Positions 28,416-33,000 of a DNA stretch of 64,000 nucleotides are shown in pieces. The position numbers and the translations under genes are program-made. Source of the DNA: an uncultured Actinomycetes bacterium (GTDB taxonomy: Bacteria; Actinomycetota; UBA4738; HRBIN12); NCBI GenBank assembly GCA_963850315.1, contig CAWKKN010000007.1, positions 146,719 to 210,718 of the forward strand. Reading direction: 5' to 3'. How positions within the stretch are numbered: the stretch's first letter is position 1; each line of letters starts with the position of its first letter. Under the pieces are notes generated by a model that was not told where the DNA came from, did no database searches, and saw nothing but the letters and a program-made list of their open reading frames with translations.

Positions 28416-28457
28416 GACGGAGCCCGGCGCGTGGGCGCCTCCCCCTATGCTTGCCGG

Positions 28458-31307
28458 GTGACCTGCGCGGTATGCGGCCAGTCCCTTCCGGAGGATGCGC
28501 GGTTCTGTCCGAACTGCGGCACCGTCGTGACGTCCTCGCTCCAGACGCAGGAACGCAAGGTGATCAGCATCGTGTTCGCGGACCTCGTGGATTCCACCGG
28601 GCTCGCGCAGCGTCTGGACCCCGAGCGGGCGCGCGAGGTCCTCGGTCAGTTCTACGACACGGTCACCGAGGAGCTGCGGACCCTCCGCGGGGTCCCCGAG
28701 AAGTTCATCGGCGACGCCGTCATGGCGGTGTTCGGACTGCCCCACGTGCACGAGGACGACGGCGTGCGGGCGGTCCGCGCGGGGCTTGCGATCCGCGCGC
28801 GCATGCGCCGGTTGAGCGAGGAGCTCGGCCTCGCGGAGCCGCTCGAGGTCCGGGTGGGGATCGAGACTGGGGAGGCCGCCACCGGCGTGGCGCCGTCCGG
28901 TCAGCTGCTCGTGACGGGCACGGTCGTCAACGCCGCCGCCCGGCTGCAGACGGCGGCTGGCCCCGGCGAGGTCCTCGCCGGGGAGACGGCTCACGCCCTC
29001 ACCGAGTCCTCCGTCTCCTTCGGCCCCCGCCGGGACGTGGAGGCGAAGGGATTCGCCGGCGGTCTCGTCGCCTATCCCGTGCAGGGTCTCACGACGCGCT
29101 CGGTGCGCCGAACGATCCCGTTCGTGGGACGCGCGAACGAGCTCACGATCCTGAGCGACGGCTTCGCCCGGGTCGTCGCCACGCGGCGCCCGCTGCTCGT
29201 CACCATCTTCGGCGAATCTGGGATCGGGAAGACACGCCTCGCCGAGGAGTTCGTGGCCAGGTTCGGTGACGGCGAGACGGTCTTGGCGGGACACAGCCAC
29301 CTCGCCACCGACAGCGCCACGTTCGCGCCCGCCGCCTCGATCGTGCGCGAAGCAGCGGGCATCGAGCACGAAGAGCCGCCGGCGAAGTCGTTGCAGCGCC
29401 TCCGCGAGCTCGTCGAACGGCTGGGATCGTCGAACGACGGACCCGATGAGCCGGTTGCCGCTCGGACCGTCGATCGCCTCGCGCTACTGCTCGGGTTGGC
29501 CGAGCACAACCGTGAGCAGTCCGCCTACCTGCAAGAGGTGCAGGCGGGCGTGCTCGCGCTGGTGGAGGGGCTCGCGTCGCGGGAGCCGATGATCCTGCTC
29601 TTCGACGACGTGCAGCCGCTGCGCGCCCCGATGCTCGACCTGATCGAACGGCTCGCGTCGCGGACCCGTAGCCGCTCGGGTCCGGCCCTCGTGCTCGTCA
29701 CGGCCCGCCCCGAGCTCTCCGAGCAGCGGCCGGGCTGGGGCTCGGGCGCTGCGAACCACCTCATGCTGCACCTCGAGCCGTTGACGCCTGCCGACGCCGT
29801 GTCGCTCGTCCGCCAAGCGAGCGGCGGGCGGATCGACGGGACCGAGGCCACCGCCCTGGCGGCGCGCGCGGGGGGGAACCCGTTCTTCATCGTGGAGTCC
29901 ACCGGAGCCTTGCTCGCCGGCGACGACTCCGGCGCGGGACTGCCACCCACGGTCCAGGCGGTCGTCGCGTCCAGGATCGACGCCCTCCCTCGGCTCGAAC
30001 GCGACCTCGCGCGGCGGCTCTCCGTCTTCTTCGTCCCGTTCGACCTCGAGGAGGCGCGCCTCGTCGGTCCCTGCGACCTTGAGCAGCTGCTTCGGCTCGA
30101 GGATGCCGAGATCGTCGTGCGGGAGGAGGGCGGACGTTCGGGTTCGCTCACCCGCTGGCGTCTGCGCCACGAGACCCTGCGTGAGGTCGCATACGCGAGC
30201 CTGCCGAAGCGCCAGCGGATGCAGCTCCACCTTGCCGTCGCCGACTTTCTGCTGTCAACCGACCACATCTCCTACGCCGCTGAGCATCTCGAGTGTGCGG
30301 CCCAGGCCTCCATCGATCTCGACCCCACGGACCGGACGCTTCCCGAGCGCGCCGCCGACGCGCTTCTCGCGGCGGGAGACCGAGCGCGGCGTCGCATGGA
30401 GTCGCGCTCCGCCGTGGAATACTACGAGCGGGCGCTCGCGATGAGCCCCGAGGACCTGTGGGGCGTGCGGGAGGCCCGCGCCCTGGCGGGGATCGGCGAG
30501 GCGCGTTACTGGCTCGCCGAGTACGGCGCGGCGCGCGAGGCGATGGATCGAGCCGCCGTGCTCGGCACCGAGCAGAACGACGACTGGACGCTGTCGCTCG
30601 CGTTGCGGTTCTTGGGCGACATCGCCATCAACGTCGAGGCCGACCTCGACAGGGCGGAGATGCTGCTGGGGCGCTCGCTCGCCTCCGCCGAGGCGCTCGA
30701 AGACCCGTGGGCGATCGCCCGCACGCTGCTGTTCGCGGGCTGGGTTCCCTGGACCCGGGAGCGCAACGACGAAGCGGAGCCGCTGTGGCAGCGCGCGCTG
30801 TCGCTCGCCCGCGAACACAGCGACCGGTGGGCGGAAGTGCGGGCCCTCACCTCGCTCTCGATCAACCACGAGAGCCTGGGGGACGCCGAAGGCGCTGAGG
30901 GCTACATCGACGAAGCGGAGACGGCCGCGGACGCGATGGACGACCAGTTCAGCGTCGCCGTGACGACGACACAGCGTGGTCGACTGTTCGAGGACGCGGG
31001 CCGCAATGAGGAGTCGGTAGCGTGCTTCGATCGAGCGATCGCCATCTTCGCGGATCTCGGAGCGCGGTGGGAGCTCGCCGACGCGCTCGCGGAGCGCGGC
31101 ATCGCGAACCGAGAGATGGGCAATCTCGACGAGGCCGAGCGGGATCTCGGCCAGGCCGTACGGCTGTCCGAGGAGCTCGGCGAGCGCCAGCTCGCCGGCT
31201 GGACCTGGCGTGCGCTCGCGCGCGTCGCCGAGGGCCGAGGCGACCGCGCCGAGGCGGCGGAGAGGTTCCGTCGCGCAGAAGAAGAGGAGGCGCGCCGGCC
31301 ACGGTGA
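28458..31307 (+). CDS. Zn-ribbon + class III adenylate/guanylate cyclase + STAND-type NTPase + TPR protein
   Basis: CAVCG..FCPNCG; FADLVDST, EKFIGDA, VNAAARLQ; Walker A GESGIGKT, Walker B LLFDD; GGNPFF; helical repeats; TATGCT 6 nt before the GTG. Confidence 0.9.
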   Translation: MTCAVCGQSLPEDARFCPNCGTVVTSSLQTQERKVISIVFADLVDSTGLAQRLDPERAREVLGQFYDTVTEELRTLRGVPEKFIGDAVMAVFGLPHVHEDDGVRAVRAGLAIRARMRRLSEELGLAEPLEVRVGIETGEAATGVAPSGQLLVTGTVVNAAARLQTAAGPGEVLAGETAHALTESSVSFGPRRDVEAKGFAGGLVAYPVQGLTTRSVRRTIPFVGRANELTILSDGFARVVATRRPLLVTIFGESGIGKTRLAEEFVARFGDGETVLAGHSHLATDSATFAPAASIVREAAGIEHEEPPAKSLQRLRELVERLGSSNDGPDEPVAARTVDRLALLLGLAEHNREQSAYLQEVQAGVLALVEGLASREPMILLFDDVQPLRAPMLDLIERLASRTRSRSGPALVLVTARPELSEQRPGWGSGAANHLMLHLEPLTPADAVSLVRQASGGRIDGTEATALAARAGGNPFFIVESTGALLAGDDSGAGLPPTVQAVVASRIDALPRLERDLARRLSVFFVPFDLEEARLVGPCDLEQLLRLEDAEIVVREEGGRSGSLTRWRLRHETLREVAYASLPKRQRMQLHLAVADFLLSTDHISYAAEHLECAAQASIDLDPTDRTLPERAADALLAAGDRARRRMESRSAVEYYERALAMSPEDLWGVREARALAGIGEARYWLAEYGAAREAMDRAAVLGTEQNDDWTLSLALRFLGDIAINVEADLDRAEMLLGRSLASAEALEDPWAIARTLLFAGWVPWTRERNDEAEPLWQRALSLAREHSDRWAEVRALTSLSINHESLGDAEGAEGYIDEAETAADAMDDQFSVAVTTTQRGRLFEDAGRNEESVACFDRAIAIFADLGARWELADALAERGIANREMGNLDEAERDLGQAVRLSEELGERQLAGWTWRALARVAEGRGDRAEAAERFRRAEEEEARRPR

Positions 31308-31319
31308 GCGTCAGTAGTC

Positions 31320-32372
31320 TTACACGAGGCTGTTTGGCGCCCGCACGCCGTCGACCAGCTGGTCGATCGTGCAGCCGCGCGGGTCCGCGTCGACGACCCA
31401 TCGAACCAACTTCGCCGCCTTACGGAACCGCCTGCCCCGCAATCGCTCGTACTCGACCTCGCAGACGAGCGACGGATCGACATCGATCCAGTCGCGACCC
31501 TCGGAGAAGCGACCGACGCGAGCCCCCGGGGCGACCGCCGCGAGCACGGCGGTCGCCTCGCGGCGGGCCGGCGCCCCCCGGAAGGCACGTGTGTGTCCGA
31601 CCTCGACGATCTCGCCGTCGTCGAACAAGCCAAGCCGCAGCGAGCGGAGGCCGGAGCTGCCCGATGATCGGATCCCCGTCACGACGCACGCCGCCGTACG
31701 CAACCGCCGAACGCGCACTTCCACCCGGCCGTCCGCCTGGCGGGCGATGAGTCCGTCGCGTCCCACCGCGTCGGCGTCGTCGAGCCAGCGCCGCGCGATC
31801 CCCAGATCGAACGTTTGGGGCGTGACGGTCAACGCCACGCCCGGCGCCAAGCGGCCGAGGTGCGCGGGCATGGTCCCCACCTCGGCGCGTTCGGCGAGAT
31901 CCATCAGTCGGTCCCTGCGGCGTTCCAACGGCAGCGCCCGTAGCTCCTCGGCGCCCTCGCTCAGCAGGTCGGTGAGCACCAGCGTCGCCGGCCAGTCCAC
32001 CGAGACCTGCGCCACCCGGGTGGCGGACGGATGGATCCGCCGGCGCAACAGGTCGAACGAGAACCCTTCGGGCCGCATCACCACCAGCGAACCCTGCAGC
32101 GTGAGATCCCCGGGCGGAAGCGCTCCGACGGCGCGCACGATCTCGGGGAAGTAGCGGCCGAGAGGGCGGTGTCGCTGGGAGGTGATCCAGACCGCGCTGC
32201 CCTCCCGCCGTACCTGCGCCCGCAGGCCGTCCCAGTCGGGTTCGTAGCGCCAATCGGACCCGTGGGGTATCCGCTCGACGACGGCCACCCACGACGATCC
32301 ATGCGGTACCTCAGGTAACGAGACGACGTCGCGCGCGACGTCGACCAGCGTTTCTTCCTCCCCGTGGACCAT
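31320..32372 (-). CDS. LigC-like ATP-dependent DNA ligase homologue lacking catalytic residues
   Basis: YEPDWDGLR (motif I K->D), [34 protein letters not shown]...DADPRGC; ORF uninterrupted. Confidence 0.85.
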
Positions 32373-32553
32373 ACCCCGACCCTCGCATCCGGGACTCGGA
32401 ACCACATCGGGCAGACGTCTGGGATCCGCCCAACTCTTCGGCCGAGTCGTCGTCGGACGATCGGGGGGGGAGCCGAGCGAGGTACAGCACGGGACCCACG
32501 CACCGCGACCCCGTAACGTGGGGCCTGCCGATCGAGACCGTAGGCGTGAGGTG

Positions 32554-33000
32554 ATGAAGATGAAGAAACCCGACTTCTCGCAACGACCGATACCGGGCAG
32601 CGATGCAGAGTGGCGTCGCGTCCTGACTCCCGAGCAGTACGAGGTTCTGCGCAACAAGGGCACCGAGCGCGCCTTCACCGGCGCCTACGCCATGACGAAG
32701 GATCAGGGCGTCTACCGGTGCGCCGGCTGCGGAGCCGAGCTCTTCTCTTCCGACACGAAGTTCGAGTCCGGCACCGGCTGGCCGAGCTTCTGGGAGCCCC
32801 TCACGCACGGCGTCGTGGACCTGCACGAGGACATCAGCCACGGGATGCGACGTACCGAGGTCACCTGCGCGCGATGCGGAGGGCACCTGGGGCACGTCTT
32901 CGACGACGGTCCCGCCCCAACGGGCGAGCGCTACTGCATGAACTCTGTGGCGCTGGCGCTGGAGCCCGCGGAGACGCCACCGGGCGTCTCCGAACCGTAG
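32554..33000 (+). CDS. msrB: Peptide-methionine (R)-S-oxide reductase
   Basis: [48 protein letters not shown]. Confidence 0.95.

Follow-up and report, generated by a model that had tools for sequence, protein, structure and literature searches.

A predicted LigC-derived pseudoenzyme from one genus of uncultured soil Actinomycetota

The gene and its product

The stretch of DNA considered here, called the window below, comprises 64,000 nt of contig CAWKKN010000007.1, assembled from an uncultured Actinomycetes bacterium. On its minus strand lies a gene, here named psi-LigC, whose product has the fold of LigC, the stand-alone ATP-dependent DNA ligase of bacteria (mycobacterial LigC, Rv3731 type), and in which the residues needed for ligation have all been replaced. 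The reading frame extends over 350 codons and a stop with no interruption, in agreement with the intact frame of about that length reported in an earlier, sequence-only reading of the locus. The start is the ATG at 32372, a choice supported by conservation in orthologues: at nearly all of 22 loci (the window and 21 related ones), an ATG stands exactly nine codons ahead of a conserved N-terminal motif, VD(V/L)..D(V/L)V(S/A)L. The gene and its domains are as follows.

31320-32372, minus strand: psi-LigC, a putatively dead LigC-type paralogue, complete coding sequence (open reading frame, conserved start, PF01068 and NF006078 matches, AlphaFold2 model)
31698-32285, minus strand: nucleotidyltransferase (NTase) domain of the adenylation type, residues ~30-225 (PF01068 match, Foldseek)
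31353-31697, minus strand: OB-fold domain, residues ~226-340 (weak PF04679 match, profile alignment to 1vs0, AlphaFold2 model)

The NTase domain is recognized by PF01068 over residues 38-220 (47.5 bits, above the cut-off of 26.2); PF04679 finds the OB domain weakly, over residues 240-320, its 18.5 bits falling short of the 27.5 required. Among NCBIfam models, the LigC-type equivalog NF006078 (PRK08224) scores highest, at 241.5 bits; the curated cut-off of 296 is not reached. An AlphaFold2 model built on 59 homologues (mean pLDDT 86.9, pTM 0.82) contains both domains, with the OB domain confident except for the loop at 287-291. In Foldseek, the top matches of this model are archaeal and human ATP-dependent ligases and the ligase domain (LigDom) of Mycobacterium tuberculosis LigD; the best TM-scores, 0.62-0.65, belong to human LIG1 closed around nicked DNA. 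Model and structural matches thus bear out the persistence of an OB domain, which the sequence-only reading had asserted, and place the protein in the ligase fold.

In architecture (NTase plus OB) and in length, psi-LigC matches LigC, its best family match, and differs from it in some 15 extra conserved N-terminal residues and in charge. The psi-LigC proteins are basic, with a median pI of ~10, a net charge of +6 and 49 Arg, whereas LigC of the same genus is acidic (pI 5.1, net charge -12). Lysine is nearly avoided in psi-LigC proteins (median 1, range 0-6, against the 49 Arg). Since 7-10 Lys are present in LigC of the same genus, this scarcity is a property of psi-LigC itself and not an effect of genome-wide composition. 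Source databases label the homologues ‘ATP-dependent DNA ligase’.

Replacement of the catalytic residues

Residues were compared between 62 members of the psi-LigC clade and 109 canonical LigC sequences. The register was fixed by profile alignment to the LigDom of M. tuberculosis LigD (PDB 1VS0; see also 6NHX and 6NHZ), the best profile match among solved structures (E 4e-33); the alignment extends to residue 333 and the register is unambiguous. Seven motifs are affected.

32226-32243, minus strand: motif I, EPDWDG, residues 44-49, with Asp46 in place of the adenylylated Lys (sequence, clade comparison, 1vs0 alignment)
32172-32180, minus strand: motif Ia, S65-Q66-R67, with the canonical Arg/Lys66 lost and an Arg one position later (clade comparison)
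32088-32096, minus strand: motif III, QGS instead of DGE, residues 93-95 (clade comparison)
31962-31973, minus strand: motif IIIa, TDLL instead of FDLL, residues 134-137, with the adenine-stacking aromatic lost (clade comparison)
31740-31760, minus strand: motif IV region, R205-DGLIA-R211, with Lys changed to Arg, a new clade-invariant Arg205 and the metal-binding acid D206 kept (clade comparison)
31704-31715, minus strand: motif V, RVRR instead of KxK(H/R), residues 220-223 (clade comparison)
31383-31403, minus strand: motif VI region, RWVVDAD, residues 324-330 (clade comparison)

The significance of these positions is known from LigD: K481 is the nucleophile that accepts AMP; R501, K635 and K637 bind the phosphates of ATP and stabilise the transition state of adenylylation; E530 contacts the ribose and K618 the adenine; E613 binds the catalytic metal (PMC8656161). 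In psi-LigC, the residues corresponding to K481, R501, E530, K618, K635 and K637 are D, Q (D/E in the clade), S, R, R and R.

Asp46, the residue aligned to K481, is encoded by GAC at 32235-32237, within the motif I codons tgg cgc tac gaa ccc GAC tgg gac ggc ctg cgg; position 46 is D in 62/62 clade members and K in 109/109 canonical sequences. Position 66, the equivalent of R501, is R or K in 108/109 canonical LigC and D or E in 51/62 of the clade (Q in the window), while position 67 is R in 54/62. In motif III, the canonical D at position 93 (109/109) has given way to R, E, K or Q in the clade, and to Q, L or S in the subclade of the window; S95, aligned to E530, is shared by 59/62 members against E in 108/109. 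Thr replaces Phe at position 134 (61/62 versus 106/109). R211, aligned to K618, is found in 60/62, where canonical enzymes have K (104/109); nearby, position 205 is R in every clade member, in place of canonical L, Q or I, and D206, aligned to E613, retains the acid in 59/62. In motif V, position 220 (K635) is R in 62/62 against K in 104/109, and position 222 (K637) is R in 54/62, with Pro in 7/62, against K in 100/109. The Arg of motif VI, at position 326 (94/109 canonical), is Val in the window and L in 61/62 of the clade. There is no substitute Lys: the highest share of Lys in any column of the 62-sequence alignment is 10%.

All the substitutions listed in the sequence-only reading (DWDG, SQR, QGS, TDLL, the motif IV Arg and RVR) are thus present, and its statement that the protein cannot be adenylylated as known ligases are now rests on a pattern that holds throughout the clade. 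The fixation of this pattern in 62 homologues, while canonical LigC keeps the catalytic residues, shows that it did not come about by chance. Replacement was also selective. Of about 45 positions conserved in canonical LigC, 33 are unchanged, some ten have switched to a new conserved residue and two or three have relaxed; the switched ones are all catalytic residues or nucleotide contacts, which argues against general erosion. What persists includes the scaffold motifs RYFPE, RIHP, LGL, EVEYE and RFR, as the same reading had noted, together with D48, G49, D135, D206 and G207. New clade-invariant residues have appeared alongside: R205, D199 and D201 flank motif IV, and R67 has been gained beside motif Ia.

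By this comparison, psi-LigC has lost all residues dedicated to binding ATP and to self-adenylylation, and the metal-binding acids (D48, D135 and D206) remain. Adenylylation on a motif I Lys is impossible, and the contacts to the adenine, ribose and phosphates of ATP are missing as well. Given these shared replacements and the selection described below, psi-LigC is a working protein and most likely no longer a ligase.

Origin, distribution and selection

A search of 5.8 billion proteins returned about 40 full-length homologues at 46-82% identity, all of them with EPDWDG, so that the substitutions are not peculiar to the window; beyond a sharp drop in score, the same search finds canonical LigC with EPKWDGF. 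An exhaustive HMMER search of 1.84 billion cluster representatives yielded only three 50%-identity clusters of the psi type, plus fragments, and a gap from 304 to 208 bits separates these from canonical ligases. In a maximum-likelihood tree of 121 sequences, all psi-LigC proteins group together with an SH-aLRT support of 100, and their stem measures 1.02 substitutions per site. Their sister group, with support 87, is canonical LigC from their own bacterial family. A single well-supported clade on a long stem, next to the LigC of its own family, points to one duplication, a burst of change and then stasis.

The distribution is narrow. Among 294 genomes of the order, psi-LigC occurs only in the genus of the window, in 21/37 species, and matches to psi-type searches in other genera of the order all carry EPKWDGF. 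A pattern scan (WR[YF]EPDWD or CEV..RLRG) of 185,579 GTDB species genomes led to 20 confirmed loci, 19 of them full-length; all come from metagenome-assembled genomes of uncultured soil Actinomycetota. Among the 62 clade members are 20 species representatives of the genus of the window. The psi-LigC of the window belongs to a divergent subclade (with P0002-P0007) and is 47-55% identical to the species representatives. The same substitutions are present in independent short-read and long-read assemblies.

One further LigC-like protein without the catalytic Lys was met (P0083: YEPAWEGC, DGQ, SD for FD, AR, VEVHR). It is independent of psi-LigC, lying on a long branch outside the clade, and ligase catalysis may thus have been lost more than once.

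Selection was assessed on 24 coding sequences by pairwise Nei-Gojobori estimates of the ratio of nonsynonymous to synonymous substitution (dN/dS), limited to pairs with dS below ~1. The ratio is 0.06-0.25 for psi-LigC and 0.10-0.21 for canonical LigC in the same pairs of genomes; values near 1, which the sequence-only reading associated with recent decay, are not seen. Codons at the replaced sites have turned over synonymously: GAC/GAT for D46, ACC/ACG for T134, CGG/AGG/CGC/CGT for R220 and CTG/CTC/CTT/TTG for L326. Eleven pocket positions are 92% conserved in the clade, against 70% for the whole protein. With a dN about twice that of LigC at larger distances, psi-LigC evolves faster yet is clearly constrained, and the description of it as a selected, non-ligating derivative of LigC can be held with high confidence.

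The intact LigC of the same genome

A canonical ligC is present elsewhere in the genome (C2:124357-125538), with EPKWDGF, DAE, FDLL, DGVVAK and KVK all in place, and a Prim-PolC-type gene (C2:123423-124169) adjoins it; a Ku/LigD locus lies on another contig, C1. Canonical LigC is also found in 16/20 of the other psi-positive genomes. With an intact LigC in the same genome, psi-LigC is an addition and not a replacement. Around psi-LigC itself, no ligD, ku or primase partner lies within 8 kb in the window, as the sequence-only reading had stated for adjacent genes, and a Prim-PolC-type gene is lacking within 8 kb at the 21 related loci as well.

Ku was found in 34/37 genomes of the genus regardless of psi-LigC, which makes its co-occurrence uninformative. 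In the genome of the window, the Ku/LigD-type locus (C1:180705-185319; L003, L004, L009, L010, L012 and L013) has its Ku, Prim-Pol and ligase parts each split over two frames, the Ku by a single 1-nt frame change near C1:181020. Three further assemblies of the genus with few contigs and low completeness (G210, G212 and G214) likewise have a split Ku, so that indel errors of long-read sequencing are a likelier cause than real pseudogenes. A second, divergent Ku paralogue (124-140 bits) was noticed in nine genomes of the genus (G196, G197, G199, G200, G205, G208, G215, G217 and G218). All nine carry psi-LigC, a pattern that shared ancestry could explain; the two genes are unlinked, separated by tens to hundreds of kb or located on separate contigs.

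A promoter-like element upstream

Nineteen aligned regions upstream of psi-LigC share two conserved blocks.

32379-32387, minus strand: extended -10-like element TGcGAGGGT, ending in a T that precedes the A of the ATG by 7 nt (T, G, A and T invariant in the 19 aligned regions)
32405-32410, minus strand: hexamer CCGATG, at -38 to -33 from the start codon (invariant, 19/19)

Across these regions, the pattern TG-N2-A-N3-T ends 6-8 nt before the ATG. Such an arrangement would suit a promoter of the extended -10 type, from which an mRNA with little or no leader would be made. Leaderless mRNAs are common in Actinobacteria. The hexamer could be an unusual -35 element or the site of a regulator. A structured 5' leader or riboswitch was considered, on the strength of hairpin-like covariation seen by eye, and rejected: RNAalifold gave -0.13 kcal/mol and no compensatory pairs. 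As there is no consensus RNA structure, and no relevant Rfam family matches the psi-LigC upstream region, the conserved blocks were reinterpreted as a promoter. Their conservation argues that psi-LigC is expressed as a unit of its own.

The element seems to be private to the gene: a regulon search of the 2.86-Mb genome, by weight matrix and by pattern, found only the promoter of psi-LigC itself in front of a long ORF. Motifs of the SOS or PafBC type were not seen by eye in the aligned upstream regions, for which no formal scan was made.

What psi-LigC might do

One way to account for such a protein is to suppose that it kept the ability of a ligase to clamp DNA and gave up the chemistry. In this account, psi-LigC arose once, by duplication of the lineage's own LigC, and passed through a burst of change. 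Lost were the nucleophilic Lys, the residues contacting ribose and adenine, the lysines of motifs IV and V that touch the phosphates, and the Arg of motif VI; the two-domain fold and most non-catalytic conserved positions were kept, and the protein became strongly basic. Unable to seal DNA by the known three-step mechanism, it would still close on DNA at nicks, gaps or 5'-phosphate ends through its NTase and OB surfaces and the Arg-lined former active site, and act stoichiometrically, marking or shielding such sites, or recruiting or competing with an excision-repair hub centred on LigC. Transcription would start from its own conserved promoter and yield an mRNA for this gene alone, probably without a leader.

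DNA binding is suggested by the retained scaffold positions (RYFPE, RIHP, LGL and RFR), by a predicted arrangement closed like that of DNA-bound ligases and by the shift to basic charge; a former active site with Asp46 and up to six arginines would suit the 5'-phosphate of a nick or gap. LigC reportedly acts as a hub, binding Prim-PolC, glycosylases and nucleases (PMC5663958; PMC7470946). A nick or gap binder that marks or protects such sites, or modulates the LigC pathway, is then the simplest model. The role proposed in the sequence-only reading, a non-catalytic DNA-binding, scaffold or regulatory function, is consistent with the retained positions and the charge, and stays at the level of a proposal; the option of a new ligand or a new chemistry was left out of consideration there. 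As read from sequence and model, the proposal that psi-LigC is a non-ligating, stoichiometric binder of nicks or gaps that marks or protects sites or modulates the LigC pathway has about an even chance of being right.

Several observations weigh against it. The gene is present in only 21/37 species of the genus and absent from the other 16, so it is dispensable. No conserved neighbour points to a pathway; within 8 kb on either side at the 22 loci, nothing is common to all subclades. At larger distances, the dN of psi-LigC is about twice that of LigC. Conservation at the replaced positions of the pocket also exceeds what DNA clamping or a purely structural role would call for, and new clade-invariant residues (R205, D199, D201 and R67) surround the pocket. 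This conservation fits a new ligand or a new chemistry as well as passive binding, or better.

The second possibility, built around the pocket, supposes that the adenylation site has been rebuilt, either to bind a ligand rich in phosphate (a second messenger, a DNA end modified at the 5' position or a non-adenine nucleotide) or to catalyse some other metal-dependent reaction, in which a ring of arginines and the retained D135 and D206 would act together with Asp46 and Asp48. Hardly any variation is seen at the replaced residues, which have been kept through synonymous codon turnover; besides the residues gained by motifs IV and Ia, metal-binding acids of the ligase (D48, and D206, equivalent to LigD E613) have been kept. 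Nucleotide-signalling genes lie nearby in both types of synteny, which is weak evidence, such genes being common. Against this, no ligand or reaction can be named from the sequence; position 93 is variable and R222 is Pro in 7/62, so that fixation of the pocket is not uniform; the clade as a whole has no conserved set of neighbours; and buried, salt-bridging residues can be highly conserved for structure alone. Rebuilding of the pocket is less probable than retention of DNA clamping, and is still a contender to be taken seriously.

Its most specific form, that the active site was converted and not switched off, with Asp46, D48, D135 and D206 joined by R67, R205, R211, R220 and R222 in a new phosphate or metal site, is a shade less probable again. 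If it were true, psi-LigC would either be an enzyme with a chemistry new to the ligase fold or sense a ligand rich in phosphate. As an enzyme, it might process DNA ends that are abasic, 5'-phosphorylated or 5'-adenylated, by an Asp-based or metal-dependent reaction; as a sensor, it would couple its ligand to DNA binding. The avoidance of Lys might then guard against pupylation, or against the formation of Schiff-base cross-links at abasic sites.

A third possibility is that psi-LigC is still a ligase by some non-canonical route, either performing only step 3, on nicks pre-adenylated by another ligase, or using a nucleophile other than Lys. There is precedent in the Chlorella virus ligase, motif I Lys mutants of which still perform step 3 on pre-adenylated nicks, and psi-LigC does retain D48, G49, D135, D206, G207 and the OB domain. 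However, with the Phe that stacks on adenine, the Glu that contacts ribose and the Arg residues of motifs Ia and VI all lost, AMP or adenylated DNA is unlikely to be held; no Lys is conserved anywhere in the clade; and the same genome has an intact LigC and a locus for non-homologous end joining. Ligation by such a route is quite improbable.

Weakest of all is the idea of a decaying gene, a recent pseudogene or an assembly artefact without function: apparent indel errors elsewhere in the assembly (the split Ku/LigD locus) and the absence of the gene from 16/37 species could be cited for it, but the 350-codon frame is unbroken, short-read and long-read assemblies made independently agree on the substitutions, dN/dS is 0.06-0.25, the clade is deep and monophyletic, and start codon and promoter-like element are conserved, so that selection, phylogeny and clade-wide residues together refute it.

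Relation to known ligases

Among known systems, the closest is LigC, the partner of Prim-PolC in excision repair. Psi-LigC shares with it 33 conserved positions in all, RYFPE, RIHP, LGL and RFR among them, and differs in falling below the equivalog cut-off, in the replaced motif I Lys and contacts of motifs Ia, III, IIIa, IV, V and VI, and in its place away from any Prim-Pol gene. From LigD, it differs further in having no POL or PE domain and no linkage to Ku.

Psi-LigC combines ligase homology and fold with the loss of the catalytic residues in all members, and with purifying selection as a distinct clade beside an active paralogue; on these grounds it is classed here as a predicted LigC-derived pseudoenzyme. 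Full-text literature searches and ligase reviews yielded no description of a Lys-less bacterial DNA-ligase paralogue. The ATP-dependent ligases of bacteria, LigC and LigD, are treated as enzymes; psi-LigC appears to be a full-length ligase body, maintained by selection, from which the adenylylation machinery has been removed. It would be a clean natural separation-of-function variant, setting the NTase/OB clamp (nick sensing, end protection, partner recruitment) apart from catalysis, and would add a non-enzymatic component to excision or end-joining repair in actinobacteria. It also advises caution in metagenomic surveys, where counts of ligase homologues are not the same as repair capacity. 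The biological reach is limited, as the clade is small and confined to one uncultured soil genus with about 20 species representatives; the case itself is unusually clear.

Gene neighbourhood

All ORFs within 8 kb on either side of the 22 loci were clustered, and the Pfam context of six contigs was examined. In the window, psi-LigC is flanked by a convergent gene on the plus strand (28431-31307; zinc ribbon, class III cyclase, AAA and TPR), which ends 13 nt from the psi-LigC stop, and by a divergent msrB, also on the plus strand, at about 32557-33000. The flanking genes also include those for a glyoxalase, a protease of the HtrA type and a two-component pair. This gene order is common to the closest relatives (L008 and L056), and other subclades have different neighbours. 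An operon partner for psi-LigC was sought and rejected, synteny being at the level of lineages only; no repair gene is consistently adjacent at the 22 loci, and a link to anti-phage defence found no PADLOC match.

The msrB ORF (plus strand, end 33000) and the glyoxalase ORF (minus strand, end 32931) are convergent, and their 3' ends share ~70 nt; gene calls in the related contig L056 show this overlap too.

A GGDEF-EAL gene lies within 0.1-7 kb of psi-LigC at 13/22 loci, and the cyclase is convergent with it in the subclade of the window. The presence of nucleotide-signalling neighbours in both synteny types is probably coincidental, and bears on the idea of a ligand sensor. In four cases (L066, L069, L072 and L076), a PAS-GGDEF-EAL gene starts 90-380 nt downstream of psi-LigC.

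Directly upstream of psi-LigC, on the same strand, a gene for a protein of ~550 aa with no Pfam domain is found at L058:6175-7851 and at 12 other loci; it occurs in most genomes of the larger subclade and is absent within 8 kb in the window. The protein begins MTRYLCAHPGHERK and has a tail rich in Ser, Pro and Thr; its middle segments, judged by eye, are apparently hydrophobic and possibly membrane-spanning.

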